From the NCBI GenBank assembly GCA_041660485.1, contig JBAZWF010000001.1:179812-243811 (forward strand): 64,000 nt of DNA, written 5' to 3'. The DNA comes from Candidatus Pacearchaeota archaeon (GTDB lineage: Archaea; Nanobdellota; Nanobdellia; Pacearchaeales; GW2011-AR1). The notes under the pieces are model-generated. The model was given only the letters and a program-made list of their open reading frames with translations, had not been told where the DNA came from and searched no databases. Shown one piece after another: positions 24,053 to 63,354 of the stretch (its first letter is position 1; each line of letters begins with the position of its first letter). The translations under genes were made by a program, and so were the position numbers.

Positions 24053-24206
24053 CCCTTCATAGCTTAGTGGTTTAAAGCGCCTGGCTGTAGACAATGTCTA
24101 GGGTGGACTGTTCCGTATGGAATATAGAATGAAACCTGATTAGAATAAATCCGCTACGGATTTAGCAGACCCCGGGAGATCCCCAGTTCAACTCTGGGTG
24201 GAGGGA
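24053..24206 (+). tRNA. tRNA-Tyr (anticodon GUA) with a ~80-nt intron in or next to the anticodon loop (about 24092-24171)
   Basis: Acceptor CCCTTCA/TGAGGG-type pairing (CCCTTCA with TGGAGGG, one G-U), D arm GCTT...AAGC, anticodon arm CCTGG-CTGTAGA-[intron]-CCGGG, T arm CCCAG-TTCAACT-CTGGG, discriminator A. Confidence 0.8.
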
Positions 24207-36408: not shown

Positions 36409-38727
36409 ATGGCAGAAGAATATTCAGCAAAGTCAATTAAAGTGCTAGAAGGCTTAGAAGCAGTTAGAAAACGCCCTGCAATGTATATAGGAAGCACTGG
36501 TAAAGATGGGTTGCACCATTGTTTCTATGAAGTTATTGATAATTCTATAGATGAAGCTCAAGCAGGAGAAGCTAATCTGATAGTTGTATCAATAAACAAA
36601 GATGGTTCTTTAAGTGTTACCGATAATGGTAGAGGAATACCAGTTGAAAAGCATGAGTCTGGTAAATCTGCTTTGGAAGTTGTTATGACTAAACTTCATG
36701 CAGGTGGAAAGTTTGAAAATAAAGCATATCAGATTTCTGGAGGGCTTCATGGAGTTGGAGTAACTTGTGTAAATGCACTTTCTAAAAAGCTTGTGGCTGT
36801 TGTTAAACAAGGAGGTAAGATTTATGAGCAAGTGTATAAAAGAGGAGTTCCTGAAGGCTCTGTAAAGGTTATAGGTAGTACTGAAAAAGATGATACAGGG
36901 ACAAGTATTACATTTTGGCCAGATGATGAAATATTTTCAACACTTAATTTTGATTTTAGTGTAATTGTTAATAGAGTTAGAGAGCTGGCTTTTTTAAATT
37001 CAAATGTTAAAATAATTGTAAAAGATGAAAAAGAGGGTAAGAAAGAAGAATTTCATTATGATGGTGGTTTAATTGAATTTGTTAAATGGATAAATCGTTC
37101 AAAATCTTCTCTTCATAAGCCGGTTTATTTTAAAAAACAAACTGATTCAACAATTATAGAAGTTGCAGTTCAGTATGTTGAAGGTTATCAGGATAATATT
37201 TTTGGTTTTGTTAATACAATTAATACTGTTGAAGGTGGAACACATATTTCTGGATTTAAAACAGCTTTAACACGGGCAATTAATGATTATGCAACTAAAA
37301 AAGGAATTTTAAAAAATAGTGATAAGTTAACTGGAGATGATGTTAGAGAAGGTTTAACTGCAATTATTAGTTTGAGAATGAAAAGTCCGCAGTTTGAAGG
37401 GCAGACAAAAACAAAATTAGGAAATTCAGAAATAAAAGGTTATGTTGATTCAGTAGTTTCAGTTGCATTAACAGAATTTTTAGAAGAAAATCCTGATATT
37501 GCAAATAAAGTTGCTAATAAATGCGTTTCAGCTGCAAAAGCTAGAGAAGCTGCAAAAAAAGCAAGAGATTTAGTAAGAAGAAAAACTGCTGTTGGATTTT
37601 CAGGACTGCCTGGAAAGTTGGCAGATTGTTCAACAAAGAAATTTGAGTTGACAGAATTGTATATTGTTGAAGGAGATTCTGCTGCTGGATGTTTTTCTGG
37701 AGATACAAAAGTTGCTTTAGCAGACGGAAGAAATATATCATTTAAAGAATTAGTTAAAGAGTACGAAAATGGAAAAGATAATTTTTGTTATACTATAAAA
37801 AATGATGGAACTATTGGGATTGAAAAAATTGAAAATCCAAGAGTAACGAAAATTAATGCTAATGTAATTAAAGTAATTTTAGACAATAATCAAGAAATTG
37901 TTTGTACTCCAAACCATAAGTTTATGCTAAGAAGTGGAGAGTATAAAGAAGCAAAAGATTTGACAAATGAAGATTCGTTGATGCCATTATATTTAGAAGT
38001 TACTGTTAAAAATAATCATAAAATAAGAAAAATTGAATTGTTAAATGATTTGATTGATGTTTATGACTTAGAAGTTAAAGATACACATAATTTTGCGCTT
38101 GCTTCAGGTGTTTTTGTGCATAATAGTTCAAAAATGGCAAGAGATAAAGAATTTCAGGCAATTTTACCGTTAAAGGGTAAAATTTTAAATGTTGAAAAAT
38201 CAAATCCGGTTAAAGTTTTAAGTTCTGAAGAAATTGTTAATTTAATTACTGCAATTGGAACCGGGATTAAGGAAAATTTTTCAATTGATAAATTAAGATA
38301 TAGTAAAGTTATAATTATGACAGATGCAGATGTTGATGGACAGCATATTAGAACTTTGCTTTTAACATTTTTCTTTAGATATGTTCCTCAGTTAATTGAA
38401 AACGGGAATATTTATGTTGCTATGTCTCCGTTATATAGAGTTAGAAAAGGAAAAGACACTTATGTTTATTCTGATGAAGAATTAGAAAAAGTTTTAAAAC
38501 AATATAATGGGAAAGCAGATGTTCAAAGATTTAAAGGATTAGGAGAAATGGATGCTTCTCAGCTATGGGATACAACAATGGACCCTAAAAGAAGAATTTT
38601 AAAAAGAATTACAATTGATGATGCTGTCAGAGCTGATGAAATATTTTCAATGCTTATGGGAGATATTGTTGGGCCAAGAAGAAAGTTCATTGAAAAAAAT
38701 GCAAATATTGCGGAGATTGATATCTAA
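36409..38727 (+). CDS. gyrB: DNA gyrase subunit B, interrupted by a mini-intein
   Basis: LEGLEAVRKRPAMYIGS, GGLHGVG, EGDSAAG|C...VHN|SSKMARDKEFQAILPLKGKILNVEK, DADVDGQHI. Confidence 0.95.
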   Translation: MAEEYSAKSIKVLEGLEAVRKRPAMYIGSTGKDGLHHCFYEVIDNSIDEAQAGEANLIVVSINKDGSLSVTDNGRGIPVEKHESGKSALEVVMTKLHAGGKFENKAYQISGGLHGVGVTCVNALSKKLVAVVKQGGKIYEQVYKRGVPEGSVKVIGSTEKDDTGTSITFWPDDEIFSTLNFDFSVIVNRVRELAFLNSNVKIIVKDEKEGKKEEFHYDGGLIEFVKWINRSKSSLHKPVYFKKQTDSTIIEVAVQYVEGYQDNIFGFVNTINTVEGGTHISGFKTALTRAINDYATKKGILKNSDKLTGDDVREGLTAIISLRMKSPQFEGQTKTKLGNSEIKGYVDSVVSVALTEFLEENPDIANKVANKCVSAAKAREAAKKARDLVRRKTAVGFSGLPGKLADCSTKKFELTELYIVEGDSAAGCFSGDTKVALADGRNISFKELVKEYENGKDNFCYTIKNDGTIGIEKIENPRVTKINANVIKVILDNNQEIVCTPNHKFMLRSGEYKEAKDLTNEDSLMPLYLEVTVKNNHKIRKIELLNDLIDVYDLEVKDTHNFALASGVFVHNSSKMARDKEFQAILPLKGKILNVEKSNPVKVLSSEEIVNLITAIGTGIKENFSIDKLRYSKVIIMTDADVDGQHIRTLLLTFFFRYVPQLIENGNIYVAMSPLYRVRKGKDTYVYSDEELEKVLKQYNGKADVQRFKGLGEMDASQLWDTTMDPKRRILKRITIDDAVRADEIFSMLMGDIVGPRRKFIEKNANIAEIDI
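37690..38124 (+). mobile_element. 145-aa mini-intein in gyrB (Cys1 ... VHN, +1 Ser), without a homing-endonuclease domain
   Basis: It splits the conserved EGDSAGG-SAKQGRD motif. CFSGDTKV at the N-terminus, VFVHN at the C-terminus, followed by S. Confidence 0.85.
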
Positions 38728-47282: not shown

Positions 47283-48413
47283 TCAAGCAGAACACACTAA
47301 AGCAGCACATCGAGGTTCTAATTTTCCTTCATTTTCTACAATAATTGTAATGCAATCTTGATGAGTCAATGCCTTAGGATAAATATCCTCTTTCCAATGT
47401 GCATTATCACAACCCGAACCGCAAATTGGTTGTCTTGCACAAAATTGAATTTGAGAACATCCATCTTTATCAATTTCTACTCCTTTTTTAGTATTAAGAC
47501 ATAAATCTTCATTATCACAAACCTCATCATTGTCAGCATCTGTGCAATTCTTACAACTAAATGGACAAGTTGGACCTAAGGCGCCATTATAATATCTATT
47601 ACCTATGCAATTAACACAATAAGTATTTTGAAGATAATTAAAATCATATATCCCTAAGAAATAAATATCATTGTCCCAGATTTGGTTATTTATGCTAAGA
47701 ACTAACATAGATAGACTGATATTATTTGAAATCATAGTATTTTTTGTAATAGTATTATTTTCTGTATCCATATTTAGTTCAATTTCGCCTTGAGTATTAT
47801 TTTTAATATAGTTTCCAATTAAAATATTATTTCTAGCAATATTTTTTTCAGATGAAGATAGCTCAAAGCCCATATAATTATTTGAAGCAGTATTATTTTC
47901 AAGATAATTATATTGTGATAATATGTAGAAACCATAAAAACCATTATTTGAACCAGTATTTCCTATAAGGTTGCTTCTATTATCTTCTAATCTAAAACCA
48001 AACCAGGTATTATTTGTTGCAGTGTTATTGAAAAAGTTAATAACTCCTAATTTATTCTTTTGAACAAAAAATCCGTTTGTATAATTTACCACATTGCAAT
48101 TTTTTATAGTTATATTGCCTGCATTAGAAGAATTTACTAGAACTCCGGTTTTATAATGAAGAACATAACTATCTCCAATTAAACGAGAATTATTGCAATC
48201 TAAAATAGTTATATTGCTTGAAACAGAATTTATTTTAATTCCGTTTGTCAGGAAATAGTTTCCCTGGCAAAATACTGTACTTTTGTTTATAACCATTCCA
48301 TTATACGGCACAATACACGAAGCATAAACCCCTGCTATAGAAATAGATAATATAAAGATAATACTAATTAATAATAAAATTGTGGTTGTTATCTTGCTCT
48401 TTCTCTTTTTCAT
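47283..48413 (-). CDS. Secreted parallel beta-helix (PbH1/NosD-like) repeat protein with a Cys-rich, TSP3-like acidic C-terminal module
   Basis: Signal peptide; repeated N-x-(I/A)-x-x-N-x-x-(Y/F)G(F/I) units; CTDADNDEVCDNEDLC. Confidence 0.75.
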   Translation of the reverse strand: MKKRKSKITTTILLLISIIFILSISIAGVYASCIVPYNGMVINKSTVFCQGNYFLTNGIKINSVSSNITILDCNNSRLIGDSYVLHYKTGVLVNSSNAGNITIKNCNVVNYTNGFFVQKNKLGVINFFNNTATNNTWFGFRLEDNRSNLIGNTGSNNGFYGFYILSQYNYLENNTASNNYMGFELSSSEKNIARNNILIGNYIKNNTQGEIELNMDTENNTITKNTMISNNISLSMLVLSINNQIWDNDIYFLGIYDFNYLQNTYCVNCIGNRYYNGALGPTCPFSCKNCTDADNDEVCDNEDLCLNTKKGVEIDKDGCSQIQFCARQPICGSGCDNAHWKEDIYPKALTHQDCITIIVENEGKLEPRCAALVCSA

Positions 48414-50412: not shown

Positions 50413-52437
50413 CTAAATAGTGCTTTCATTTCTTAATATCTTTAAAACAAGGTTATAAACTTCTGGAGTTTCATCAACACTAATAAGTTTTGAATGCAAC
50501 TTTCCTACAAGTGCACAAGTTCCATTTATCTGATAATTATTAGCTCCCTCAAGCTTTGCACTATTAGCAGTTACAATTCCATCTCCATCTTCACCATTCA
50601 TATCACAACCCGAACCATAAATAACTGAAATTGGAACATCTGGCAAATCTCCATTATTTAGCTTATTCATAAACAAACTATCTTCTTTCATATCCTTGCA
50701 TTCAAGAGTTTCTCCGAAATAATCACAATATGTAGCAACATCTCCAACAATTCCTTTATTAGGAGTTCCAATCAAAATAACCTGCTCAATATCATTAGTT
50801 CCAAATATCTGCATATATCTCCGGGTAACAAGCCCGCCCATTGAATGAGCAATAATAACAACCTTAGGCCTATTAGTTTCATATTTAACTGTTTTAATTA
50901 AATCATTTAATCTAACTGCATAAGTATCAATATTCTCATTTTTAGTCTGAACAGAAATTACAGTTCCAGTTTGTTTAAATACATCAAAATAATAACTTAA
51001 TTTTAAGGTAATAGGAACATCAGCCCAGACAATCTCGCCCCTTGAAACATTATCTTTTGAATAAAGAGAAATTATTCCTGCATCAAGATAGCCCTCTTTT
51101 TCAAATTTAGCCTGAATTTCATTAAATGCATCTAAACTATATTCAGCAGAAACTTCTTTGCTAAAATCATGTCCATGCAATAATAATATTGGATATTTAT
51201 CAGCTTTACTTCTGCATAAATTATCAGTGCAACATTCTTCACAAACCCCAAATACACAACATTGCAAAGGCTGATTTCCTAATGAAATATTAACTAAATT
51301 ATCTCGAGTTCTAACAAAATTTATTTTTCCATATAAAACTGGATTAGATTTAATAATAACCAAACTACCATCACCAACAGAGGTTATTTTCATTTTTTCA
51401 ACTAAACTTTCCTTCCCATTAACAAATTCTAATTCAAATGCATTTAATTGAATCATTTTACTATTCAACTCACTTTTTAAACCAAAATCATCATTTAATT
51501 TATTAAAATCAATAATTAAACTATTTAACTCACTATTCAGACTATCATTTTTTAATAAAGAAACATTTGAACTTAAATTTCCAATATCAGAACTTAAATT
51601 ATTCAGTCGATCAATTGCATTATTATAAATAACAGACTTATTAATTACCTCACCTTTCAAACTTTCAAACTGATTCGAATGAGGAACATATAAACTTCCA
51701 ACTATGCCTAAATTATATTCAAATTCATCAAAGTTATAGCTATCCCAATAAGTTTTTAATCCAGTTAAATCACTTTTAATTAAATCATTTTCAGATTTAG
51801 ACTTATTTAATCTAACATAATAATTATCAACTAGCATTGTCTTGCTTATTTCACCAAGCATTTGTTGTAGAGAATTAATATCATTTTCAATTTGATTTAT
51901 TTTGCCTACAGCAACATCAAAATTATTTTTAGACTGCTCTTTTGCTAATTGTTGTTCATTATTTAACCTATAATCTAAAGTAATCAAAACCTCTCTCCTT
52001 TTCAAATCTTGAGAAGTATCGCATAAAAATGTAGGAATACTTAAACATTCAACCTCAAAACGATATAATTCCTGTCCTTCTCCAGTTTTATCTGGTTTAA
52101 GAACATAATCTTTGCTTAAAGGAACAGCCAATGTTAAAATAGAACTATCTTTATCAATTCCCCTATTCGTACTTATATCTAAAAATTGAGAAGTGCATTG
52201 AACTTTGCAAAAGGGATTTGCAGTTACTTTAGTAGTAAAACTAACTTTTGCTTCTTCTCCATTTAAAACAATAAAATTTTCTTTATTTGCATTTAAGTTT
52301 ATTAAAACATCATGCCCAAGAATAAATTTAAAATAAAGAAATATCCTTGCCCCAAATAAAAATATAAATACAATAAATAAAAATAATATTAAACACAAAA
52401 TAATCTTCTTAGTTCTTGTTAATTTTTTCCTAGCCAT
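50413..52437 (-). CDS. N-terminally membrane-anchored protein with a C-terminal alpha/beta-hydrolase (lipase class 2 / PGAP1-like) domain
   Basis: TM at the N-terminus; ILLLHGH, VVIIAHSMGGLVTRRY (GxSxG nucleophile elbow), GDGIVT. Confidence 0.75.
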   Translation of the reverse strand: MARKKLTRTKKIILCLILFLFIVFIFLFGARIFLYFKFILGHDVLINLNANKENFIVLNGEEAKVSFTTKVTANPFCKVQCTSQFLDISTNRGIDKDSSILTLAVPLSKDYVLKPDKTGEGQELYRFEVECLSIPTFLCDTSQDLKRREVLITLDYRLNNEQQLAKEQSKNNFDVAVGKINQIENDINSLQQMLGEISKTMLVDNYYVRLNKSKSENDLIKSDLTGLKTYWDSYNFDEFEYNLGIVGSLYVPHSNQFESLKGEVINKSVIYNNAIDRLNNLSSDIGNLSSNVSLLKNDSLNSELNSLIIDFNKLNDDFGLKSELNSKMIQLNAFELEFVNGKESLVEKMKITSVGDGSLVIIKSNPVLYGKINFVRTRDNLVNISLGNQPLQCCVFGVCEECCTDNLCRSKADKYPILLLHGHDFSKEVSAEYSLDAFNEIQAKFEKEGYLDAGIISLYSKDNVSRGEIVWADVPITLKLSYYFDVFKQTGTVISVQTKNENIDTYAVRLNDLIKTVKYETNRPKVVIIAHSMGGLVTRRYMQIFGTNDIEQVILIGTPNKGIVGDVATYCDYFGETLECKDMKEDSLFMNKLNNGDLPDVPISVIYGSGCDMNGEDGDGIVTANSAKLEGANNYQINGTCALVGKLHSKLISVDETPEVYNLVLKILRNESTI

Positions 52438-52468: not shown

Positions 52469-54547
52469 TTATCTTAGGATAGATCTTGCCCTTTTTTGAA
52501 GCTCTTCAGCAAGTTCTGCTTTTTTCTTTGAAAGCTGTTCTTCCTGCATTCTTGCATTCTGCCTCATTCTATCTTCAAATTGACGATTATATTTTGACTT
52601 AAGCATATCTTCTCTTCTCTTTAATTCCTGAAGCATTTCTAGATGAGCTTTTTCAGCAAACTCCTTCTGCAGTTTTATTCTTTCCTGTTTTACTTTATCT
52701 TCCTCTTCTTTTTTAAACAAATTAATTTTATCCATAATAACTCTTTTTTCACTTGCAATTTCAATATTTTTCTCTTTTTCAAGTTCAAGCAATTTCTTTT
52801 CTTTTAATCTTAGAGCAGCTTCCTGAGCTTCATGTTTTGCATTCATTTCCTTAAGCTTATTTTCAAGTTTTTTCTTTTCTAATAAAATTTCTTCATTTGC
52901 CTGATGTCCAAACTCTTTTCTTAATTGCTCTTGCAGTTTCTTCTTTTTAAGTTGAATACTTTTATTTAATTGATTGCTGTAATCGAGTTTCATTTTTCTT
53001 TTTAATTCCATTCTTTCCATAATTCCAATTTCAGATATTTTTTGAGCCATTTCTTTTTTCTTCGATTCATATTCTTGCTGAAGTCTTTGTTTTTCTTCAC
53101 TAATATGTTTATTTAATTCAGAATCGAATCTATTATTGTAGCTTTGTTTAAGCTTTTCAGTTAAATTATGAATTTCTTTTTTATGTTCTTCAATAACTTT
53201 CTTATGTTCTTCTTCTTTTATTTTATGCTGATTATGTTTCAATTTAGACTGTTGTAAAATTAAATGCCTATTTTTCTGTTTTTGCTTTTCAAGAGCATAA
53301 GTTGTTTCAGAAAGATTTTGATTAAGCAATTGATTCATTTTTTGCTCATGAGTTAAAGAATCTCTTAACTGTTTTGTCTGCTCTTCAACAAGCTCAGCTT
53401 GTTTTTGTCTCTGCATATTAACAAAATTATTCATCTTAATAACAAACTGCCTTTTCAAATCATCACTTAATTTTTTTCTTTTCAAAATCAATTCCTGATT
53501 AATTCTATCATTTGCCTGCTGAGTAAGCTCGCTTCTAATTTTATTCTGGAAATTCAAAACATCATGTCTGTCTTTAATCTTCTGTTTTTCAAGTTCCTGA
53601 ACTTTCTTCTTTAAAAGAACATCATTAATTATCTTCTGTCTATCAATTTCTCTTAATTTCTTGCCCAATGATTCCCGATTAATTTTATCATTACTAATTA
53701 ATTTTCTTTCAATTTCATTTTTCTCTTTCTGAAGTCTCAGTAATTTTTCTTTAATATCTTTCTGTTCATTTTCCATCTGTCTTTGCTGTGCAACTTTATC
53801 TTTTCTTACTTCATTTGCTAATTGTGATCTAAATTGTATTTCAAGATTTCTTTTTTCCTTTTCAAATTCTTCTTTATATTTTTGCTTCATTCGCGAAACA
53901 TAAAATAAATCTAATTTTGTCCTCTCTGCTTCAAATCTTTTTCTTAATTCATCAGAAAACTTTTGAGCAACTTCTTTTTGAAGCTCAATTTTAACTTTAT
54001 CTTTATAATCTTCCTTAAGTTTACCCTGCATATCATTATACTTTTCTTCAAGTTCTTTTTTCCTTAATATCAAGTCCTGCCTTAAATCCTGATTAAGCTG
54101 TCTTTCTTTATTTTTAACTCTATTAGAAAGCTCAAGTTTCAAATGATTAACAAAATCCTGAAATCCTTCATCAACAACTAAACTTACATCAGAATCTTCT
54201 TTTATTTTTTTAGTTAATTGATCATTAATAGAACTTTTTAAATTTTTAATTTCTTTCCTTATCTCTAAATTTGTATCAGAAATTTCTTCAAATCCTTTTT
54301 CAATATTTTTAAGAGGAGATTTTCTCACTCCTTTATTTAATACTTTATGTCTTAAATCTCTCATTAATTTTTCAACTTCAGGAATAGCAGTTGTATCTTT
54401 TAAACGAGATCGAATAACACTAACTTCTTTTTCAAAACCTTTAGTATCTAATGTCTTCAACTCGTTCTTTATCTCTTCAAGTTTATTTACTTTGCTCTGA
54501 AAAGAATAAAAATCTTTTCTAAGCTTTTCATCACTCTTTTTCACCAT
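52469..54547 (-). CDS. K/E/Q-rich coiled-coil protein (692 aa), no TM
   Basis: Composition and heptad-like periodicity by eye. Confidence 0.65.
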   Translation of the reverse strand: MVKKSDEKLRKDFYSFQSKVNKLEEIKNELKTLDTKGFEKEVSVIRSRLKDTTAIPEVEKLMRDLRHKVLNKGVRKSPLKNIEKGFEEISDTNLEIRKEIKNLKSSINDQLTKKIKEDSDVSLVVDEGFQDFVNHLKLELSNRVKNKERQLNQDLRQDLILRKKELEEKYNDMQGKLKEDYKDKVKIELQKEVAQKFSDELRKRFEAERTKLDLFYVSRMKQKYKEEFEKEKRNLEIQFRSQLANEVRKDKVAQQRQMENEQKDIKEKLLRLQKEKNEIERKLISNDKINRESLGKKLREIDRQKIINDVLLKKKVQELEKQKIKDRHDVLNFQNKIRSELTQQANDRINQELILKRKKLSDDLKRQFVIKMNNFVNMQRQKQAELVEEQTKQLRDSLTHEQKMNQLLNQNLSETTYALEKQKQKNRHLILQQSKLKHNQHKIKEEEHKKVIEEHKKEIHNLTEKLKQSYNNRFDSELNKHISEEKQRLQQEYESKKKEMAQKISEIGIMERMELKRKMKLDYSNQLNKSIQLKKKKLQEQLRKEFGHQANEEILLEKKKLENKLKEMNAKHEAQEAALRLKEKKLLELEKEKNIEIASEKRVIMDKINLFKKEEEDKVKQERIKLQKEFAEKAHLEMLQELKRREDMLKSKYNRQFEDRMRQNARMQEEQLSKKKAELAEELQKRARSILR

Positions 54548-54587: not shown

Positions 54588-57500
54588 TTACCCTTTTAAG
54601 GGATTTCTTCCTTTAAATTCATCAAGTTTCTTTTGAAGTCTTGTTGTATCATAATATCCTTTTTCCTTCCATTCTCTTAATTGTTTCTCAAGATCACCTA
54701 GTTCTTCTTTCTTAACTTCTTTTCTTCTTATCTTTCTTTTTATCTCTCTAGCTTTTCTTCTTGCAGCTTTTCTTTCAACTCTTACAAACTTCTTTCTTGC
54801 TTTTACTTTTGCTCTTATCGCTTTTCTTTCAGCTCTTGCTTTTTCTCTTATTAATTTCTTTTGAGCTTTTTCTCTTGCTCTTATTATCTTTTTCTCAGCT
54901 TTCGCAACCGCTCTTTTAATTCTATATTCTTTTATTTTTCTTGGGATTTTTTTAACTTTCTTTGCCATTGAAGCAATCATTCCCTCTTCTAACTTAGATA
55001 CTCCATAGTATTTCTTCTGTTTCCATTCTTTCAACTTATCTGACATTGAAGCAAACATCTTTCTTCTAGGTTTAACTGCAGGCATTTCAATTGGCTTTAT
55101 CACAGTTGGCTTCTCAATTCTCACAGCTCTTTCTCTTCTTACTTTTCTAAATCTAATCTTAACTTCAATTCCTGAGAAGAACTTCTTAATCTTTCCAACT
55201 GCGCTTCCAGCTACTCTTCCAATTCTTTCTTCTATTCCAATTCCAGGTCTTGCCGGTTTCACAGCTCTTTCAATTTCTCTTCTTGCTTTGAATTGAGGTA
55301 ATTTAATCTTCTTCAATTTCATTCCCTTAATACCTGAAATTTTTTCAATAATTTCTTTTCTATGCTTAATTATTGCATAAACAACTAATATCAATAAAGA
55401 TATCCATAAGATTAATTTCAAATAATACAACCAATCAAAGTATGCTTTCTTAATAATACAAGGCGCACATGAACCTCCACAATCAACATCAGTTTCATCA
55501 AAGTCTTTAATTCCATCAAAACAGAAATTACAATAACCTGCAAATGAAGAAGTAATAAGTCCAATATCTAATTTTTTTAATCCAGAAACCTGGCTTGATT
55601 TAAGTCTGCTTACTAATTTATTAGAAGCAATATCATAAACTTCAACATAATCTTCATAACATATTTTTGAGTTTACAATTCTTACTGGAGTTCCAACATC
55701 ACAAGAACTATAATTTACAGTATTATTCTCACATTTTTTAGCATCAGAACAAAGACTAAATTGCTGTCCAGATAAAACAGGTTTTCCTTGAAGAACATCA
55801 GTTACGCTATAATTAAATTCACAAAGAGAATTTTCTCCACATTTAAAATCAGGAATACAAGAACACTCTTGCTGATAGGGTTTATTTAAATTTGTTCCGC
55901 ATTCATTTAAATCAACACAGTCTTCAGCATATTTAAATCCAGGCTCTTTACAAACACTCCATGTACAATACCAATTTTCTTCACAAAGAGTAAGATTAGA
56001 AGATACTTTAACATCCCATAAAACTTCCTGAATATTAAGCCCATTGCTAATTTCAGCTTTTATCTTTGAATCTTTCAAAAATCTTTCAGTACTAAAACTT
56101 TGCAAACTATCAGTTCCTGAATCTTGTTTTCTTAAAGTAGAATCTAAATACCATTTAATTGTTAAAGGTTCACTAACACTATCTACCATAGTAACTGAAA
56201 ACTCAATTGAAGAACCATTTGCAATTATTAAAAATAATTCTTGAGGAGTATAAGTAATAATTAAATTTTTTATACAAGATTGAGTTTCTGTATAAGTAAG
56301 ATTAGTTTCATCACATCTATTTCTATCTGTCCAGATTCTACTATGAACTCCCCCTTCACATATATTCCATACACCATATTCCCATAAAGGAGTACATCCG
56401 CACGCTCTAAACTCAGTTTCAGTACTTCCACATCCATCACTTCTTGTTCTTGTTTGTTGATTATTTACACAATCACTCCAAGCACTCCAAGCACTCCAAG
56501 AAGAAGTACATCCCCCTTCTCCTTTATTATGAACTAAAACATTATTTGCATAGAAATTATGATATTTATCAATTGATTTTAAGTTATAAGTTTGAATTAC
56601 TTCATTCCAACAATTAATTGATTTTATTTCTTTATATTTCAAATCGTCAAACATAACATAATCTCCAACAATTAAATCACTTACAAAGCCCATTGCACTA
56701 TTTTCTTTTAAAGTTTCTTTTGAAGAAATTGCCTTCCATCCCTCATTTGTATAAACTGGATGTTCTTTTGTTAATTCAAGTTTAGAATTATCAGAAAATA
56801 CCAAAGAACACATATGATTTCTAACAGGTGTTTCAATTTCTTCAACTCTGCCAATATCATTTATTTTATTTTTCTCATTATAACTAAGAATATCTTCTCC
56901 AACTTTAACATCTTCAATATTTTTTTCATTTCCATCACTCATTAATATTTTTGTTCCAGCAGGGAAACAAGATGTAGGAACATCAGTACAACTTTGTGTT
57001 TCTACTTCTGTTCCTCCACAACCATCTGTTCTTGAACGTGTTTGAACACTTCCAGAACAAGCACTCCAAGCACTCCAAGCACTATAACTCGGAGTACATA
57101 CTTCTTTATCAGCGTGAATTGCACTTCCAATATATGTTCCATAATTATCATTACTTAAAGTTACCTCCCATCGTATAAATCCTCCAAAACTTTTATTAAC
57201 AGTTACATTTGCCCTATAGGAACCATTAACAAGTTTAATTATTCCTTTTTCGGGATAATAAGTTGGCCCATAAGGCTGTTGAGCAGAATTTGTTGAATTA
57301 GCACTAATATTCTGTGGATCGTAAACAAATGTTCCAGTTTCATTTATTTTAGTTATATTAATTAATAATGTAGCGTTATCTCCATCATAATAACCTCCAA
57401 ACGCTCTTAGATTTACCATTGTCAAACTAGTAATATATCTAACAATTGAAAAGTTAGTATATGATTCATTAATTGCCTTAGAATAATATTGTGAAGGAAG

Positions 57501-60500
57501 TGTATAATTAACTAATAAAGAATTAGTTCCTGCACTTAAAGAGGATTTACTATAAGAATAAGAACAATGTCCAGAATCATTTGTATAAGCAGTTGTAATA
57601 AAACTATTATTATTATAAAAATAACATGTTGCTCCTGCAACTCCTTGATTTGTTTCATTATAAACTCTTGCAGTTAAATTAACAGATTTCGCAACAATCC
57701 CCATATCATCTTCTCCGGTAACTAAGCTATTTCCTCTAACTAATTCAATCCCATTTTCAGGATATGTAAAATTAATTGATACAGAAGGATATTTAGTTGA
57801 AAAAAACACAGAAGTAAAATTAATATTATTTGCACTATCATTACAAGTAAATACAACATTATTTGAACCAGAAGCTAAAATAGGATAAGTAGAATAAAAA
57901 TAAGTCTCATTAAATCTATTCATAGTAATATTTGTCATCAAATTCAAACTAAATTTGCAAGAATCAAGGTTTTCTGAACCACTTACATTAAATTCAATTA
58001 ATGATGGCCCATAACTATCATTTAATGGAGAAATAATATTAAGCAATGGGAAAGTAGTATCTATTATCAAAAAATTAGGATCACTAAAGTATTCGGTGGT
58101 TATACTCTCATCACCTAAATTCAAAGTATAAATACATGAAACAAACCAATCATAATTATTATCTGATAAAGTTTTTGAAACTGTTTGATAAGTCCCATTA
58201 GCCGGAGAAATAACAGTATCTTCAGAAATTCCATTAATAATTAAAGAACAACTATCCACCTGAGGACCGGTATAATAATAAACAAAATTCTGTGAAGGGT
58301 TATTTGAAATTAAATTATTCTCAGGAGAAACTAAATAAATTGTAGGTTCAGGAGGATTTCCTAAAACTTCAATGCTTCCAGTTGATGTCTCAGCAATATT
58401 TCCTGCATCATCATAAAGATAAAATTTATATGAATAAGTTCCGGTATAAACTCTTTTACTATAATCCACTAAATAAGATGTCCCGCCAATTGCAACAGGT
58501 GAATCATTTTGCCAAACACCATTTGGATTGCTTGAAAAAATAAATCTGCTTAAATTAAAATTATCATTTGCTAAAACTCCAAAGTGAGCAAAAGTATTGT
58601 TATAAACTCCTCCAGTGGAATAAAGTCCACTATAAGTTGGAGCAATATTATCAATTTGAACAGCCCATAAATCTCCTTTTCTATTATTATTTGTAGGAGT
58701 AGCTGCATCATTAACACTTATATTTGCATATTTTATTCCTGAACTTGCAGTGCTTATATTTGCAAGTATATTCCATGAACTATTAAATAAAGGAGCCATA
58801 CTTCCAGAAGAGAATGTCATATTTGTCCATAAACTTCCATTTAAATTAATTAAATATGCCTGAACATAATTTATTCCAGCAGCAACAAAAGGAGAATCAG
58901 TTACAGTTGCAGTTAAATTAACTCCCTGATTATTTTTAACACTTGATTGTCCTATTGGATATACTACTTGCATATCAATAACAATTGGTTTTGTTCTATC
59001 AATTATATAATGAATAGTATCAAAATTAGAATTCCCAGAATTATCATATGCCATAATACGAATATCATAACCCTCACTTAAATTTGAAAAAGAAGCAGTA
59101 TTCCAAGTGCAACTATAAATATTGGCAGAAGAAATACGGTTTATGCAAGTACTTATATTTGTCCAGCTTGTAACAGTAGAATTTTTATATTGGAAATGAG
59201 CTACTCCCAACCCATGATTATCAGAACCATTTGCCCTTATTATTACAGGCCCATTAACAAAAGAATTATTTGAAGGGGAATAAATATAAATATCTGGAGG
59301 AGTTGAATCCTGAGTAGTCAAAGGCAGATAATCAATATTATAGTTATTAATTACATAAGTTTGATTACAAATAGAATCTCCGTCAGGATCTCCGCATGTT
59401 TGAGAACGTCCAGTTCCAAGAGAATTAACCCAATAATTTCCACCAATATAATTTCTACCAATTATATTTGTTGTAAGTGTTTTTGTTTTATTCAAATAAT
59501 TAAGATAGCTAGCACTATTTGAAAAAGAAGCAATTGACCCAGTTGAATTAAAGATATTATTAGAAATAAAATTAGAACCTGAACTACTCATTTGTATTGC
59601 AAGAGAAAATGAAGCAACAGTATTGTTAACAATAAAACTATTCCCACTTAATGAATATGATATTCCTATACCTCCTGCAGTTAAAGCAGTTAGATTACTA
59701 TTAGTAATATTATTATAATAATTATAATTGTTAAATCTTATTGCATAATTTGTTCCTATTCCATTAATTAAAATATTATTTGAATCAATAATTGTTGAGT
59801 TTATCCCTCCAGTTAAATATACTCCATAAGCAGAAGTTCCAGAAGTTACAATAGAATTATTTAAAATACTATTTCCAATTCCATATAAAGACAAAGCAAT
59901 TCCATAAGCACTTGTATTAGTAGTATTAATTATATTAGTAGAAAATATATTTGAATAAGATTTCATATAAGAATATATTCCATAACCTGAAGTTCCTAAA
60001 GATAATATTTTATTTGAAGTAAAATTATTATTGCTTGAATTAAATAAATAAACTGGATAAGCACTTGAACCAGCAGTAGTAATATTATTTCCTGAAATAA
60101 CTCCAATAGATGAACCTAATAGATATATGCCATAAGCAGAAGTTGCACTTGTTTTAATAGAATTATTTAATATTAAACTTGAATTTGATTGCTGTAATAA
60201 ATAAATAGAATAAGAACCATACCCGCTTGTATTAATAATATTATTATTTATTGAACCAGACTTATATTTATTAAAATAAATTCCATGATTTACAGAATTA
60301 GAAGTTATTGAGCCATAAGTTGTAATGCTATTATTTTCAATTGTTGCATTTGTCCCATTCTGAAAATAAATTGCATAACTATTTGTCCTTGTTGCACTTG
60401 CCTGAGACATTTTACAATCTCTAACAATACTATCATTATAATTAACAGAAGCAATACCATAACCATTTGTTGTTTTAGAATAATTAATTAAATGCCCGCT

Positions 60501-60893
60501 ACAATTCAAAGTAACTTTATTTGCTTTTATATTAAAACAAGTTCCTGTAGATAAAACATCTAAAGTAAGAATATAAACTGAATTTGAAACAGTTAGGTTA
60601 GTGCAATTAGAAATATAAAAAACATTTACTTCCTCATCTTCTAATATTCCAAATCTTCCTGTAAAAAGTCCAAAAATATACTGCCCAACAGCTTCTATAC
60701 TTGCAATAACTCTTTGTGCAAATGTTGTAGATGTAGATTCTGTTTGTGCAAAATATCCTTGCTTATTATCAGAAGTATAGCTTGCAGAATCTCCTTGAAA
60801 AGCATAAACAATTGAAAAAATACCGGTTAAAAAACCAGTAAATAACATAAACATTACAATAGCTAAAGTATATTTTAAATTAAGTGCTTTCAT
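54588..60893 (-). CDS. Giant (2101 aa) surface protein: signal peptide, parallel beta-helix repeats, Ig-like region, TSP1-like repeats flanking a Hint domain, Cys-rich modules, one TM and a ~270-aa polybasic cytoplasmic tail
   Basis: Uninterrupted 6.3-kb ORF. PbH1-like NNSI..TS..SAYGIYL repeats. WSAWSAWS-C motifs. TM LILWISLLILVVYAII. Confidence 0.9.
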   Translation of the reverse strand: MKALNLKYTLAIVMFMLFTGFLTGIFSIVYAFQGDSASYTSDNKQGYFAQTESTSTTFAQRVIASIEAVGQYIFGLFTGRFGILEDEEVNVFYISNCTNLTVSNSVYILTLDVLSTGTCFNIKANKVTLNCSGHLINYSKTTNGYGIASVNYNDSIVRDCKMSQASATRTNSYAIYFQNGTNATIENNSITTYGSITSNSVNHGIYFNKYKSGSINNNIINTSGYGSYSIYLLQQSNSSLILNNSIKTSATSAYGIYLLGSSIGVISGNNITTAGSSAYPVYLFNSSNNNFTSNKILSLGTSGYGIYSYMKSYSNIFSTNIINTTNTSAYGIALSLYGIGNSILNNSIVTSGTSAYGVYLTGGINSTIIDSNNILINGIGTNYAIRFNNYNYYNNITNSNLTALTAGGIGISYSLSGNSFIVNNTVASFSLAIQMSSSGSNFISNNIFNSTGSIASFSNSASYLNYLNKTKTLTTNIIGRNYIGGNYWVNSLGTGRSQTCGDPDGDSICNQTYVINNYNIDYLPLTTQDSTPPDIYIYSPSNNSFVNGPVIIRANGSDNHGLGVAHFQYKNSTVTSWTNISTCINRISSANIYSCTWNTASFSNLSEGYDIRIMAYDNSGNSNFDTIHYIIDRTKPIVIDMQVVYPIGQSSVKNNQGVNLTATVTDSPFVAAGINYVQAYLINLNGSLWTNMTFSSGSMAPLFNSSWNILANISTASSGIKYANISVNDAATPTNNNRKGDLWAVQIDNIAPTYSGLYSTGGVYNNTFAHFGVLANDNFNLSRFIFSSNPNGVWQNDSPVAIGGTSYLVDYSKRVYTGTYSYKFYLYDDAGNIAETSTGSIEVLGNPPEPTIYLVSPENNLISNNPSQNFVYYYTGPQVDSCSLIINGISEDTVISPANGTYQTVSKTLSDNNYDWFVSCIYTLNLGDESITTEYFSDPNFLIIDTTFPLLNIISPLNDSYGPSLIEFNVSGSENLDSCKFSLNLMTNITMNRFNETYFYSTYPILASGSNNVVFTCNDSANNINFTSVFFSTKYPSVSINFTYPENGIELVRGNSLVTGEDDMGIVAKSVNLTARVYNETNQGVAGATCYFYNNNSFITTAYTNDSGHCSYSYSKSSLSAGTNSLLVNYTLPSQYYSKAINESYTNFSIVRYITSLTMVNLRAFGGYYDGDNATLLINITKINETGTFVYDPQNISANSTNSAQQPYGPTYYPEKGIIKLVNGSYRANVTVNKSFGGFIRWEVTLSNDNYGTYIGSAIHADKEVCTPSYSAWSAWSACSGSVQTRSRTDGCGGTEVETQSCTDVPTSCFPAGTKILMSDGNEKNIEDVKVGEDILSYNEKNKINDIGRVEEIETPVRNHMCSLVFSDNSKLELTKEHPVYTNEGWKAISSKETLKENSAMGFVSDLIVGDYVMFDDLKYKEIKSINCWNEVIQTYNLKSIDKYHNFYANNVLVHNKGEGGCTSSWSAWSAWSDCVNNQQTRTRSDGCGSTETEFRACGCTPLWEYGVWNICEGGVHSRIWTDRNRCDETNLTYTETQSCIKNLIITYTPQELFLIIANGSSIEFSVTMVDSVSEPLTIKWYLDSTLRKQDSGTDSLQSFSTERFLKDSKIKAEISNGLNIQEVLWDVKVSSNLTLCEENWYCTWSVCKEPGFKYAEDCVDLNECGTNLNKPYQQECSCIPDFKCGENSLCEFNYSVTDVLQGKPVLSGQQFSLCSDAKKCENNTVNYSSCDVGTPVRIVNSKICYEDYVEVYDIASNKLVSRLKSSQVSGLKKLDIGLITSSFAGYCNFCFDGIKDFDETDVDCGGSCAPCIIKKAYFDWLYYLKLILWISLLILVVYAIIKHRKEIIEKISGIKGMKLKKIKLPQFKARREIERAVKPARPGIGIEERIGRVAGSAVGKIKKFFSGIEVKIRFRKVRRERAVRIEKPTVIKPIEMPAVKPRRKMFASMSDKLKEWKQKKYYGVSKLEEGMIASMAKKVKKIPRKIKEYRIKRAVAKAEKKIIRAREKAQKKLIREKARAERKAIRAKVKARKKFVRVERKAARRKAREIKRKIRRKEVKKEELGDLEKQLREWKEKGYYDTTRLQKKLDEFKGRNPLKG
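56526..56969 (-). other. Hint (intein-like / BIL-type) domain, 148 aa, inside the giant surface protein
   Basis: CFPAGTKILMSDG...TKEHPVY...NFYANNVLVHN followed by Lys, not Cys/Ser/Thr. Confidence 0.8.
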
Positions 60894-61151: not shown

Positions 61152-62648
61152 TTACCCACTTAAATTTTCAACATATTCTGGCGCATCAACTGGAGAAGGA
61201 GCAACTTCCATTAATTTTTGAGCAAGATACATAAGCCATTTAGCTTTATCTAAAGAAATCTGGGATTTCAAAATATCCCTAGACAAACCAGCATCATAAG
61301 TTTTTTCAATCCAATACTCTCCAATTTCAAATCTAATAATCAATCTATCATTTAAAATTTCAGACTTAACAATTTCTGCATCTTCTTCTCCAGTAATCAT
61401 TTTAAGCTTGAACTTCTGTTCATCACTTAATACAAAACTACTTACATTTTCATCTTCAAAGGTAACATTTGCAGTTAAATTAGAAGTTAAATTAGCAAGT
61501 AAAGTCTCATTGCTAGCAGTTGAAGTTTCTAAAAGAACTAAATTCTTGCTTACAGATAATATTTCTTTATTTTGCGAAATAACTGAAACAATCATTTCTC
61601 CTTCTTCAGGATTTAAATTAAGTGAAGATAAATTAATATTAATTTCATAAGTTATATCTCCTAAATAATCTTCTCCAAAACCTTCTTCTGTTTCAGAATA
61701 ATCAGTTGTAACAGTTACAACTCCATTTTCAATAGATAATGAAACTGGTTGTGAAGAAGATACAATTTCTGCAGTCTGTCCTGATTCAAGAGTATAAGTA
61801 TAAGGATTTTCAAAAGAAGTTACTCCACTAACTTCTCCAACTTCATTTATTGTTTCTCCAGTAATTGGAGATGTTTCACCTACTTCAGAGGTAGATTCAG
61901 TTGTTGATTCTGTTGAAGATGTTTCAGAGGTAGATTCAGTTGTTGTTTCTGGAGTTTCACTTGAAGTTGATTCTGGTGTAGATTCAGTTGTTGTTTCTGG
62001 AGTTTCACTTGAAGTTGATTCTGGTATAGATTCAGTTGTTGTTTCTGGAGTTTCACTTGAAGTTGATTCTGGTGTAGATTCAGTTGTTGTTTGTGTTTCT
62101 TCAGTAGAAGTTTCGCTTGTTTCTGTTGAAGTATTTGTTTCTTCACTAGTTTCACCACTAATTCCTTCTGTTCCAGTTCCTTCACTTGTTCCAGAAGAAA
62201 TTACATTCATAGTAAATGAAACTTCTGGATAACTTATTTTCTCGCCCAAAATTCCATATCCTTCTCCACTTCCAGATAAATCTTGTCCAATAGCATAATA
62301 ATCTCCATTAAGAGCTGCTTCAGAAGTTAAACCAGACAAAGTATAATTTGAATAATTAGAACCAATTTTAATTGAAATAATTGAATCAGAAGGAATAAGC
62401 TCTCCTGATTTAAGGCTTAATGCAAGACTCCCTTTCAAAGTTTCATTAGGAAGATAAGTTGTAGTAACTGTTAATGAAACACGCCCAGTTGTTCCAAAAT
62501 TTCCAATATTAATAAAAAAAACAAATAAAACTCCAACTAATACAACTATAAATGCACCTATCCAAAATTTATTATTAAACTCAAATTTTTTACGTTTAAC
62601 TAAATTCTGTTCATTTAATTCTTTATTATTTTTCAAAATTCTTTTCAT
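61152..62648 (-). CDS. Membrane-anchored mucin-like protein with a Thr/Ser/Glu/Pro-rich tandem-repeat stalk
   Basis: N-terminal TM; TTTESTPESTSSETPE repeated. Confidence 0.75.
   Translation of the reverse strand: MKRILKNNKELNEQNLVKRKKFEFNNKFWIGAFIVVLVGVLFVFFINIGNFGTTGRVSLTVTTTYLPNETLKGSLALSLKSGELIPSDSIISIKIGSNYSNYTLSGLTSEAALNGDYYAIGQDLSGSGEGYGILGEKISYPEVSFTMNVISSGTSEGTGTEGISGETSEETNTSTETSETSTEETQTTTESTPESTSSETPETTTESIPESTSSETPETTTESTPESTSSETPETTTESTSETSSTESTTESTSEVGETSPITGETINEVGEVSGVTSFENPYTYTLESGQTAEIVSSSQPVSLSIENGVVTVTTDYSETEEGFGEDYLGDITYEININLSSLNLNPEEGEMIVSVISQNKEILSVSKNLVLLETSTASNETLLANLTSNLTANVTFEDENVSSFVLSDEQKFKLKMITGEEDAEIVKSEILNDRLIIRFEIGEYWIEKTYDAGLSRDILKSQISLDKAKWLMYLAQKLMEVAPSPVDAPEYVENLSG
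61931..62098. repeat. About 3.5 copies of a 48-nt coding tandem repeat (16-aa unit TTTESTPESTSSETPE)
   Basis: Units start at 61931, 61979 and 62027, with a partial unit at 62075. Confidence 0.85.
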
Positions 62649-62649
62649 A

Positions 62650-63354
62650 TTAACTTGTCGTTTCCACTGTTGTTATAACATTATTCCAATCAACATTTCC
62701 TACATTTTCAACATAAACTGCAATTACATCTCCAGGAACATAAGTTAAAACATTTTCTGACTGAGTATCAAAGTCAATTTTCTTTTGGTCAGATGAAGTT
62801 ATCATATTGCTAAATCCTGTGTCAACTCCATTTTTATAAACTTTAATATATAATTTTCCAGTTCCATCTTTTATACCTAAGCTTGTTGATATTCCTGTAA
62901 TGCTTCCAGGTCTCATCATAACATAACCTCTTTCTGCACTTGATTGAACTCCAGTTGCACTATCAAGATATCTTGATTTAACAGATTCACCAGAAAATCC
63001 AAATGTCAAATATTGAATATTCTTAGTTATAGCAGTTTCAAGTTTTGGTAATTCATTTGCAGAATATGTTACAATAAAAAGATTTTCAGATTTATTTCCT
63101 TCAGTATAATTTACTTCATAGATTCCAACATTATTTTCATCAATTGTTTTAATCTGAACATCATCAGGTAAAGATGACTGATCAACTTGTTGTATGTCGG
63201 TAATTTTATCTGAATCAATTCCCCCTTTTTCAACAAAAGAAGAAACATAGTCAGAAACCTCTTTAGAAACCGCTCCATCAGAAATAGTTTGGGCAAAAGC
63301 TCCAGCTGATATTAAAAATATAAATCCTAAAACAACTATCACCTCTTTTTTCAT
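62650..63354 (-). CDS. Secreted hypothetical protein (234 aa, signal peptide)
   Basis: N-terminal VIVVLGFIFLISAGAFA; stop-start spacing of 1 nt to the next gene. Confidence 0.6.
   Translation of the reverse strand: MKKEVIVVLGFIFLISAGAFAQTISDGAVSKEVSDYVSSFVEKGGIDSDKITDIQQVDQSSLPDDVQIKTIDENNVGIYEVNYTEGNKSENLFIVTYSANELPKLETAITKNIQYLTFGFSGESVKSRYLDSATGVQSSAERGYVMMRPGSITGISTSLGIKDGTGKLYIKVYKNGVDTGFSNMITSSDQKKIDFDTQSENVLTYVPGDVIAVYVENVGNVDWNNVITTVETTS

Follow-up and report, generated by a model that had tools for sequence, protein, structure and literature searches.

In a 64,000-nt stretch of DNA (the window) from a Candidatus Pacearchaeota archaeon (assembly GCA_041660485.1, contig JBAZWF010000001.1, positions 179,812 to 243,811), a single open reading frame at 54588..60893 encodes a surface protein of 2101 amino acids (aa), hereafter the adhesin, which is the host of the element described here, a Hint (intein-like) domain set between two modules resembling thrombospondin type 1 repeats (TSR; TSP1 in database names). 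Translation of the interval on the plus strand is full of stops, which places the gene on the minus strand; the coordinates of the initial annotation, made from the sequence alone, are exact as the reverse complement and yield stops only when read on the plus strand. The order of domains is a signal-like hydrophobic N-terminal segment, a passenger of beta-helix and Ig-like domains, the TSR-Hint-TSR cassette, a Cys-rich stalk, a transmembrane helix and a basic cytoplasmic tail. The features, with the evidence for each in brackets, are as follows.

54588..60893, minus strand: whole gene, surface protein of 2101 aa (open reading frame, Pfam, hydropathy).
60636..60893, minus strand: signal-like hydrophobic stretch at the N-terminus, aa 1-32, followed by the N motif FQGxSxSY...GRFGIL, aa 33-86 (hydropathy; motif common to relatives).
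60636-60797, minus strand: the N motif alone, FQGxSxSY...QRxIGG...GRFGIL (family conservation).
57132..60635, minus strand: variable extracellular passenger, aa 87-1254, right-handed beta-helix and Ig-like domains (Pfam).
56988..57101, minus strand: TSR-like module 1, aa 1265-1302, VCTPSYSAWSAWSACSGSVQTRSRTDGCGGTEVETQSC, four Cys (sequence, profile search, AlphaFold2).
56970..56987, minus strand: N-side linker TDVPTS, aa 1303-1308, with Ser1308 at position -1 (sequence).
56526..56969, minus strand: Hint domain, similar to bacterial intein-like (BIL) domains, aa 1309-1456, 148 aa (Pfam, NCBIfam, AlphaFold2, Foldseek, alignments).
56511..56525, minus strand: Lys1457 at position +1 and Gly-rich C-side linker KGEGG (sequence).
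56400..56510, minus strand: TSR-like module 2, aa 1462-1498, CTSSWSAWSAWSDCVNNQQTRTRSDGCGSTETEFRAC (sequence, profile search, models).
56271..56396, minus strand: third, degenerate Trp/Cys module, aa 1500-1541 (sequence, model).
55446..56270, minus strand: Cys-rich stalk with the family-conserved pre-membrane domain, ...YCNFCFDGIKDFDETDVDCGG... (family comparison).
55368..55445, minus strand: transmembrane helix, aa 1817-1842 (hydropathy).
54591..55367, minus strand: basic cytoplasmic tail with conserved end motif LREWKEKGYYDTTRLQKKLDEFKGRNPLKG (composition; family comparison).
54651-54680 and 55005-55034, minus strand: tail motif LREWKxKGYYDTxRLQKKLDEFKGRNPLK and its degenerate internal copy KLKEWKQKKYYGVSKLEEGM (family conservation).

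Two hydrophobic segments, one close to aa 10 and the other close to aa 1821, emerged from the hydropathy analysis. The tail following the transmembrane helix comprises 259 aa, of which 36% are Lys or Arg and none Cys. Since the positive-inside rule assigns a tail of this composition to the cytoplasm, residues ~33 to 1816, including the Hint domain, are predicted to be extracellular, a location in agreement with the Cys-rich flanks (26 Cys in aa 1457-1816) and the 61 N-x-S/T sequons in the passenger. Pfam domains of the passenger were Beta_helix/NosD (aa 204-490) and Big_7 (aa 533-603). The placement of the Hint domain between a ~1300-aa beta-helix part and a membrane-anchored stalk, as originally annotated, is therefore supported by both Pfam and hydropathy.

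The Hint domain starts with CFPAGTKILMSDG at aa 1309 (nt 56931-56969) and ends with NNVLVHN at aa 1456 (nt 56526-56546). The catalytic set consists of Cys1309 (Cys1), Thr1375 and His1378 of block B (TKEHP, aa 1375-1379) and His1455-Asn1456, and the residue at +1 is Lys1457, so that the 148-aa segment at 56526-56969, its three motifs and the +1 Lys are all as the initial annotation had described them. Pfam matched the segment with Hom_end_hint (9.4e-8), Hint (7.3e-7), Vint (1.7e-6) and Intein_splicing (1.1e-5) over the full length (2-155/155), and NCBIfam intein_Nterm scored 26.4 bits, over its cutoff of 24.5. The sequence matches in the PDB were 8w20 (5.4e-7), an 'intein C-terminal splicing domain-containing protein', and 6tmm/6y75 (6e-5). 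No endonuclease domain was found in the adhesin Hint. An AlphaFold2 model spanning aa 1255-1545 and built on 40 homologues had a mean predicted local distance difference test (pLDDT) score of 88.4, with values >95 over most of the Hint domain and ~63 at the +1/KGEGG linker. Foldseek against the PDB returned 63 matches at E<=1e-3, the best 50 of which were all Hint domains of BILs, inteins or Hedgehog proteins. The best were the Tetrahymena BIL2 structures 6tmm/6y75 (E 1.8e-11 to 8.5e-11, TMt 0.85-0.88), and 2lwy, a BIL of C. thermocellum, was fifth-best (E 3.2e-9, TMt 0.87); below the BILs came mini-inteins (gp41-1, DnaB, RecA and others) at ~1e-8 and weaker, with Hedgehog 1at0 in 48th place (5.9e-5). 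These results indicate that, as modeled, aa 1309-1456 are a complete Hint-fold domain. The absence of any Hint-fold match, and a degenerate remnant with mutated Cys1 or HN, had both been allowed for at the outset; matches were obtained by Pfam and fold search alike, and Cys1 and HN are intact in the adhesin and in its Hint-bearing orthologues. Elsewhere in the window, GyrB (36409-38727, plus strand) contains a canonical 145-aa mini-intein (37690-38124, aa 428-572, CFSGDTKV...GVFVHN/SSK, the slash marking the junction) without an endonuclease domain, with which the adhesin Hint shares 25% identity (E 1e-8).

In an alignment of 56 full-length copies of the domain, 56/56 retain Cys1, both block-B residues (Thr and His) and the penultimate His, and 55/56 the terminal Asn. 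At +1, 43/56 copies have Lys and 0/56 have Cys, Ser or Thr; at -1, 25/56 have Ser; and 11/56 end ...HNK with Lys as the last residue of the protein. Cys1362 (window 56884-56886, minus strand) and Cys1428 (56686-56688, minus strand) covary, with C/C in 19 copies, C/T in one and never X/C. The strict covariation, which fits an extracellular domain, suggests that the two residues form a disulfide, one probably specific to the branch of the domain found in DPANN archaea and in candidate phyla radiation (CPR) bacteria.

In order to define the wider subfamily, the 149-aa domain was used as phmmer query against a library of 1.84 billion representatives, which returned 5370 proteins at E<=1e-3, 1311 at E<=1e-10 and 131 at E<=1e-30. 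The best 139 proteins contain 230 complete copies, with Cys1 retained in 228 and HN in 219; position +1 is occupied by Lys in 156, by Arg in 16 and by Ser, Cys or Thr in 23. Near-invariance of the catalytic residues across hundreds of copies argues for selection for chemistry. Tandem arrays are frequent, since 78 of the best 139 proteins carry 2-7 copies a few residues apart. The array spacers are 2-5 residues long (K-G-S, R-F, K-F; for example in P0184, P0185, P0006 and P0018), and many such proteins end ...HNK-stop. GTDB species genomes were scanned with a trimmed alignment of the Hint domain, and the subfamily was found nearly confined to DPANN archaea and Patescibacteria/CPR, with far weaker occurrence in Bacteroidota, Planctomycetota and others. 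The host proteins are heterogeneous. Patescibacterial proteins with a prepilin-type N-terminus (PF07963; P0010-P0013, L012 and L015) end in a Hint domain, with the junction ...VHN/(A/V)..., and their sequences suggest a Hedgehog-like C-terminal processing of CPR pilin-like proteins and a subfamily shared across CPR and DPANN.

The modules flanking the Hint domain are each 38 aa long, Cys/Trp-rich and with four Cys, and share 23/38 residues (61% identity), as expected from the two similar Cys/Trp modules initially annotated. In a narrower delimitation, they span aa 1270-1302 (nt 56988-57086) and aa 1464-1498 (nt 56400-56504). Both possess the Trp strand and the RxR strand (YSAWSAW...TRSRT in module 1, WSAWSAW...TRTRS in module 2), a pattern conserved over 12 modules of the adhesin and its relatives. 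A profile built from these 12 modules and searched against all PDB sequences matched only TSR-containing proteins at E<0.3, including thrombospondin-1 (7yyk, 1.9e-6), MIC2 (9e-4), properdin, isthmin, complement C7/C8/C9, UNC5 and F-spondin; the only non-TSR match was the prolactin receptor (E>=0.48), which itself carries a WSxWS motif. With Pfam, TSP_1 gave no match at E<=1 on the 306-aa segment. Scans of single modules at E<=10 returned exclusively families of the TSP1 group (TSP_1, TSP1_spondin, TSP1_CFP_C, TSP1_CCN and PTN_MK_C), none of which reached its gathering score (TSP_1 best E 0.0054, cutoff 21.6 bits; TSP1_spondin 8e-4, cutoff 41 bits). Module 2 also matched the TSP1 region of complement C7 by phmmer (E 0.008). 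The AlphaFold2 model of module 1 (pLDDT 82-93) shows an irregular Trp strand followed by two regular strands, and a model of module 2 with module 3 (pLDDT 85) shows, in both modules, an antiparallel beta-hairpin after an irregular Trp segment. Foldseek with the latter model gave weak matches, ranging from 7e-3 to ~2, to pleiotrophin (7e-3), components of the membrane attack complex, midkine, TRAP and the TSP1 domain of CCN3, and none at E<=1e-3. Compared with canonical TSRs, the adhesin modules have the WSxWSxWSxC segment followed by the RxR strand, whereas they have four Cys in place of six (three disulfides), are shorter (38 aa), occur in an archaeal host and lack the CSxTCG insertion, seen as a 4-residue gap in the profile alignment. 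The flanking modules probably have the same fold as TSRs, and because the fold search gave no match at E<=1e-3 the label is kept at TSP1-like, membership of the TSP1 family not being established. The proposed TSP1 resemblance is thus upheld by the profile search and the sub-threshold Pfam matches, and is qualified by the Cys count and the lack of any Pfam model at threshold.

A search with the whole adhesin identified three close full-length orthologues, P0068, P0069 and P0070. In P0068 and P0069 the Hint domain is at the identical position (QSCGGGGTS/CFPAGTK...VLVHN/KGEGGGC). P0070 (Candidatus Pacearchaeota, GCA_016186425.1) is without Hint; the sequence across the site is QSCSGGGGGGGGGCIPSWSSWSAW, where a Gly9 linker, QSCSGGGGGGGGGC, replaces the domain. 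P0070 is a positional orthologue, with conserved neighbour genes of 234/238, 498/488 and 692/890 aa in the window and in L001, respectively. The passenger of P0068 is 80% identical to that of P0070 and 73% to that of P0069, and the passenger of the window adhesin (P0059) is ~50% identical to each of the three; P0059 and P0068 are 66% identical in the Hint domain and 49% in the N-terminal 1254 aa. Since the Hint-bearing window adhesin serves as outgroup, an ancestral Hint domain lost in P0070 is the simplest history. The gene for P0068 (L003) has runs of GGN Gly codons on both sides of the Hint domain and the gene for P0070 (L001) has one merged Gly9 run, which fits a deletion between the repeats. 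The nucleotide comparison suggests loss of Hint in the P0070 lineage by recombination or slippage between Gly-codon runs, and secondary loss seems a better description of the relatives without Hint than a target site still empty. A second pair, 53% identical to each other, consists of two mini-versions of the family: P0221, which has 658 aa and a Hint domain, and P0057, which has 491 aa and none. A search with P0057 returned 13 proteins, a number that does not allow members with and without Hint to be counted without bias.

The arrangement around the Hint domain recurs in relatives as the cassette ...HAD..C..(Y/F)(S/G)xWSxWSxC..QTRxRTD..C..ETQSC - 4-6 residues ending S/T - Hint - K-G - C..W..W..W..C. 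Both modules and the Hint domain are present in P0198, P0217, P0221, P0225 and P0238, whereas P0197 and P0214 retain, of the two modules, only the upstream one. GTDB genomes with the cassette were also identified among Woesearchaeota (L016), Pacearchaeota (L031, L037) and Nanoarchaeota (L004, L035). At least ten related DPANN surface proteins have the TSR-Hint-K-G-TSR cassette, and +1 is Lys in 10/10 cassette-bearing members. Common to the family are the N motif (shared with P0057, P0068-70, P0221, P0225, P0217, P0238, P0197 and P0214), the pre-membrane Cys domain and the tail motif, on passengers that range from ~90 to ~1300 aa. The identities of Hint and host correlate among ten family members (Spearman 0.39, p 0.007), those of Hint being ~15 points higher. 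No direct repeats were found at the borders of the adhesin Hint in the window, and the GC content of the Hint domain (25.2%) is close to that of the gene (29.0%), the small gap being explicable by amino-acid composition. Recent homing was rejected on the basis of the missing endonuclease, the missing border repeats, the small GC gap and the correlated divergence of Hint and host. As far as these comparisons reach, the Hint domain belongs to the conserved architecture of the family, although members can do without it; where present it invariably marks the boundary of passenger and stalk, and it is not a recent gene-specific insertion. The description of the domain as inserted and unusual was accordingly abandoned in favor of a recurrent cassette of a DPANN surface-protein family; the search for the same insertion point in relatives, which had been proposed with it, was positive for P0068, P0069 and the wider family and negative for P0070 and P0057.

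Three genes that neighbour the adhesin gene in the window (52469-54547, 61152-62648 and 62650-63354, all minus strand) have no Pfam match and are syntenic with Pacearchaeota L001. A small AbrB/MazE-like gene that overlaps the start of the adhesin gene in L001 and L003 is absent from the window. Downstream of the adhesin gene lie a second, smaller NosD/beta-helix protein of 376 aa (47283-48413, minus strand) and a 674-aa protein (50413-52437, minus strand) of which the C-terminal part matches lipase/alpha-beta-hydrolase families, which may point to a cluster of surface or secreted proteins. The window has a GC content of 28.9% and carries an intron-containing tRNA and a thermosome-type chaperonin, and the best orthologues of the adhesin are annotated as Candidatus Pacearchaeota, Nanoarchaeota or Woesearchaeota; together these features mark the window as archaeal and its source as a member of DPANN. 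The tRNA match (24053-24206, plus strand) spans 154 nt against a 71-position model, which indicates a long intron; the tRNA was not called by ARAGORN.

BILs lack a +1 nucleophile, yield mostly cleavage products and reside in hypervariable regions of non-conserved proteins; type A BILs keep the His-Asn pair and can in addition ligate their flanks, the N-terminal thioester being attacked by the amine that cyclisation of Asn has set free (PMC4031507, PMC7664689, PMC7765530). By analogy, the reading that we consider probable, with moderate confidence, is that a catalytically intact type-A-like BIL autoprocesses the adhesin at the passenger/stalk boundary, for the most part cleaving the passenger from the stalk. 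After export and folding, Cys1309 would convert the Ser1308-Cys1309 bond to a thioester by an N-S acyl shift assisted by Thr1375 and His1378 of block B, and His1455 and Asn1456 would cut the Asn1456-Lys1457 bond with formation of a succinimide. Since the +1 residue is Lys and not Cys, Ser or Thr, no canonical branched intermediate would form, and cleaved products are therefore expected as the main outcome: the ~1300-aa passenger with module 1, the free 148-aa Hint domain, and a membrane-held remainder of module 2, stalk, transmembrane helix and tail. A variable fraction might be re-ligated by attack of an amine on the thioester, giving a continuous protein that resembles the Hint-less orthologue. 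The cleavage chemistry and the ratio of cleavage to ligation are presumed from the biochemistry of BILs and inteins.

Several observations weigh against this reading. The Pfam Hint-family scores of the single sequence are at or slightly under the gathering thresholds. P0070, with a passenger 80% identical to that of P0068, does without the Hint domain, which is surprising if release of the passenger is essential, and the loss would fit ligation, with an unchanged mature protein, at least as well. Furthermore, the +1 Lys is strongly conserved, even as the last residue of a protein, and would be left unexplained by simple hydrolytic cleavage. The very close orthologues with and without Hint and of otherwise the same architecture favor an end product equal to the Hint-less protein, that is, efficient ligation. 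In the corresponding alternative, which we regard as unlikely although deserving of consideration, the Hint domain excises itself and efficiently re-joins modules 1 and 2 by the aminolysis of type A BILs, leaving TDVPTS joined to KGEGG in the junction peptide TDVPTSKGEGGC, and persists as a nearly neutral, silent element. The pair P0221 and P0057 repeats the presence and absence, the linker after excision (TDVPTS+KGEGG) would be similar in length to SGGGGGGGGG, and for type A BILs splicing is possible even with no nucleophile at +1 (PMC4031507). However, in the BILs that have been studied cleavage products predominate over the spliced form (PMC4031507, PMC7664689), a homing endonuclease is missing, the correlated identities of Hint and host argue against recent horizontal spread, and the boundary position kept in at least ten diverged members looks like a retained function rather than parasitism.

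The conserved +1 Lys together with BIL2 as the closest structure leaves room for an amine-directed ligase reaction. The thioester at Cys1309 could be resolved by another amine, such as the epsilon-amine of Lys1457 in an isopeptide bond, or by an amine or hydroxyl of an external molecule, which would leave the passenger covalently attached, for example to the surface of a host cell or to the archaeon's own envelope, in the manner of Tetrahymena BIL2 or of cholesterol transfer by Hedgehog. This hand-off is judged quite improbable. BIL2, the closest solved structure, is reported to form isopeptides with Lys (PMC8616854), and the +1 Lys is present in 68-77% of copies and kept as last residue in 11/56; on the other hand, the proposal relies on analogy to a domain of 22-24% identity, the conserved Lys could equally be structural or act as general acid or base, and no acceptor is identifiable from the sequence. 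The more specific idea that the +1 Lys is the business end of an ATP-independent cell-surface protein ligase, which would transfer the thioester to the Lys epsilon-amine or to an external nucleophile, is a long shot. If true, the passenger could be isopeptide-linked to the stalk of the adhesin, to other envelope proteins nearby or to the surface of the host cell that carries the ultra-small DPANN/CPR episymbiont, and the tandem arrays of 2-7 Hint domains would be multi-shot conjugation devices. A dead Hint fold serving as structural spacer or binding module has parallels in the degenerate relatives P0051, P0053, P0054 and P0056, which end in ...YE/FE in place of HN; it is very improbable given that all catalytic residues are intact in the adhesin and its orthologues and near-invariant over hundreds of copies. 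A canonical mobile class-1 intein with standard four-step splicing would account for Cys1, the TxxH motif, the terminal HN and the identity to the GyrB mini-intein, but is almost certainly not what the domain is. Class-1 inteins have Cys, Ser or Thr at +1 and occupy conserved sites of conserved hosts. The Lys1457 of the adhesin Hint provides no nucleophile for trans-esterification, which effectively refutes this reading and agrees with the earlier expectation that canonical splicing is unlikely; the site is a Gly-rich linker, variable among orthologues, in a non-conserved surface protein and no conserved catalytic site; and there is no endonuclease domain, whereas the GyrB intein of the same genome has a canonical HN/S junction.

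A life attached to other cells is assumed for DPANN archaea and CPR bacteria, whose giant, fast-evolving surface proteins are the foremost candidates for making the contact. The Hint domain at the passenger/stalk boundary, together with the CPR pilin-like and array relatives, points to a shared post-translational step in which adhesin heads might be shed, re-ligated or covalently transferred. In variable secreted proteins, autoprocessing domains of the Hint/BIL kind are already known, and precomputed Pfam annotations flag Hint families on the proteins described here. In the searchable literature no description was found of the DPANN and CPR distribution of this Hint subfamily, of a fixed Hint position between TSP1-like modules of a defined surface-protein family, or of the conserved +1 Lys and tandem arrays of the subfamily, nor any relevant account of Hint/BIL domains or thrombospondin repeats on the surface proteins of DPANN or CPR. 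The findings extend 'bacterial' intein-like domains to archaea, and the flanking modules may represent a short prokaryotic form of the thrombospondin type 1 repeat with few Cys. Hint domains in which Lys is conserved at +1, now available as a large natural collection, are of interest for intein mechanism and for protein-ligation engineering.

Among known systems, GAIN/MAIN and SEA/SEAL modules likewise place a self-cleaving unit between an ectodomain and its envelope anchor, with release of the ectodomain proposed (bioRxiv 10.64898/2026.05.12.724683); their fold and chemistry are unrelated to those of the adhesin Hint, and their cleavage products remain non-covalently associated. Canonical mini-inteins such as that of GyrB share the fold and the catalytic residues at the ends, whereas they have Ser at +1 and lie within a conserved enzyme core; in the adhesin Hint, +1 is Lys and the site is a linker. 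A variable surface protein as host and a linker as point of insertion speak for a BIL and against an intein. A Hog domain of the Hedgehog type was ruled out, HN being present and KGEGG and module 2 following directly, with 1at0 far down the structural matches. The PT-HINT domain of a 1368-aa protein (8w20) is the best PDB sequence match, including the terminal ...VLVHN, and PT-HINT domains are similarly set in large secreted multidomain proteins to free one part. There, however, the Hint domain is upstream of a released C-terminal toxin, whereas in the adhesin the C-terminal part is the membrane-anchored stalk and the N-terminal part the 'cargo'. Membership of PT-HINT was ruled out, since PF07591 scored 17.7 bits against a cutoff of 27.7 and a Cys-rich stalk, a transmembrane helix and a basic tail follow downstream.

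BIL2 of Tetrahymena thermophila BUBL (6tmm, 6y75) is the best structural match (E 1.8e-11, root-mean-square deviation ~1.9 A) and ranks second among the PDB matches by sequence (E 6e-5), with an identity of 22-24%. BIL2 is eukaryotic, cytoplasmic and located between ubiquitin-like domains, which the adhesin Hint does not have as flanks. Its depositors describe a Lys-epsilon-NH2 isopeptide bond by which the N-terminal flank is conjugated to other proteins (PMC8616854). The closest correspondence overall is with type A BILs, defined by Amitai et al. 2003 through specific sequence motifs and exemplified by that of C. thermocellum (2lwy), which agree with the adhesin Hint in fold, Cys1, the block-B TxxH, His-Asn, the absence of a +1 nucleophile, the absence of an endonuclease and a site in the variable part of a non-conserved secreted or surface protein. 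Differences are the TSP1-like flanks of the adhesin Hint and the tandem arrays of 2-7 copies frequent in its subfamily. The +1 position also differs, a BIL with Ala having reportedly been described by Dassa in 2004. A published BIL has Tyr at this position (PMC4031507), and the adhesin subfamily a conserved Lys. The adhesin Hint is accordingly assigned as a type-A-like BIL by its HN, +1 residue, site and fold. Type A BILs are bacterial in name, whereas the adhesin Hint occurs in a DPANN archaeon and its subfamily is shared with CPR; the host domain is a naming convention and no mechanistic criterion for a BIL.

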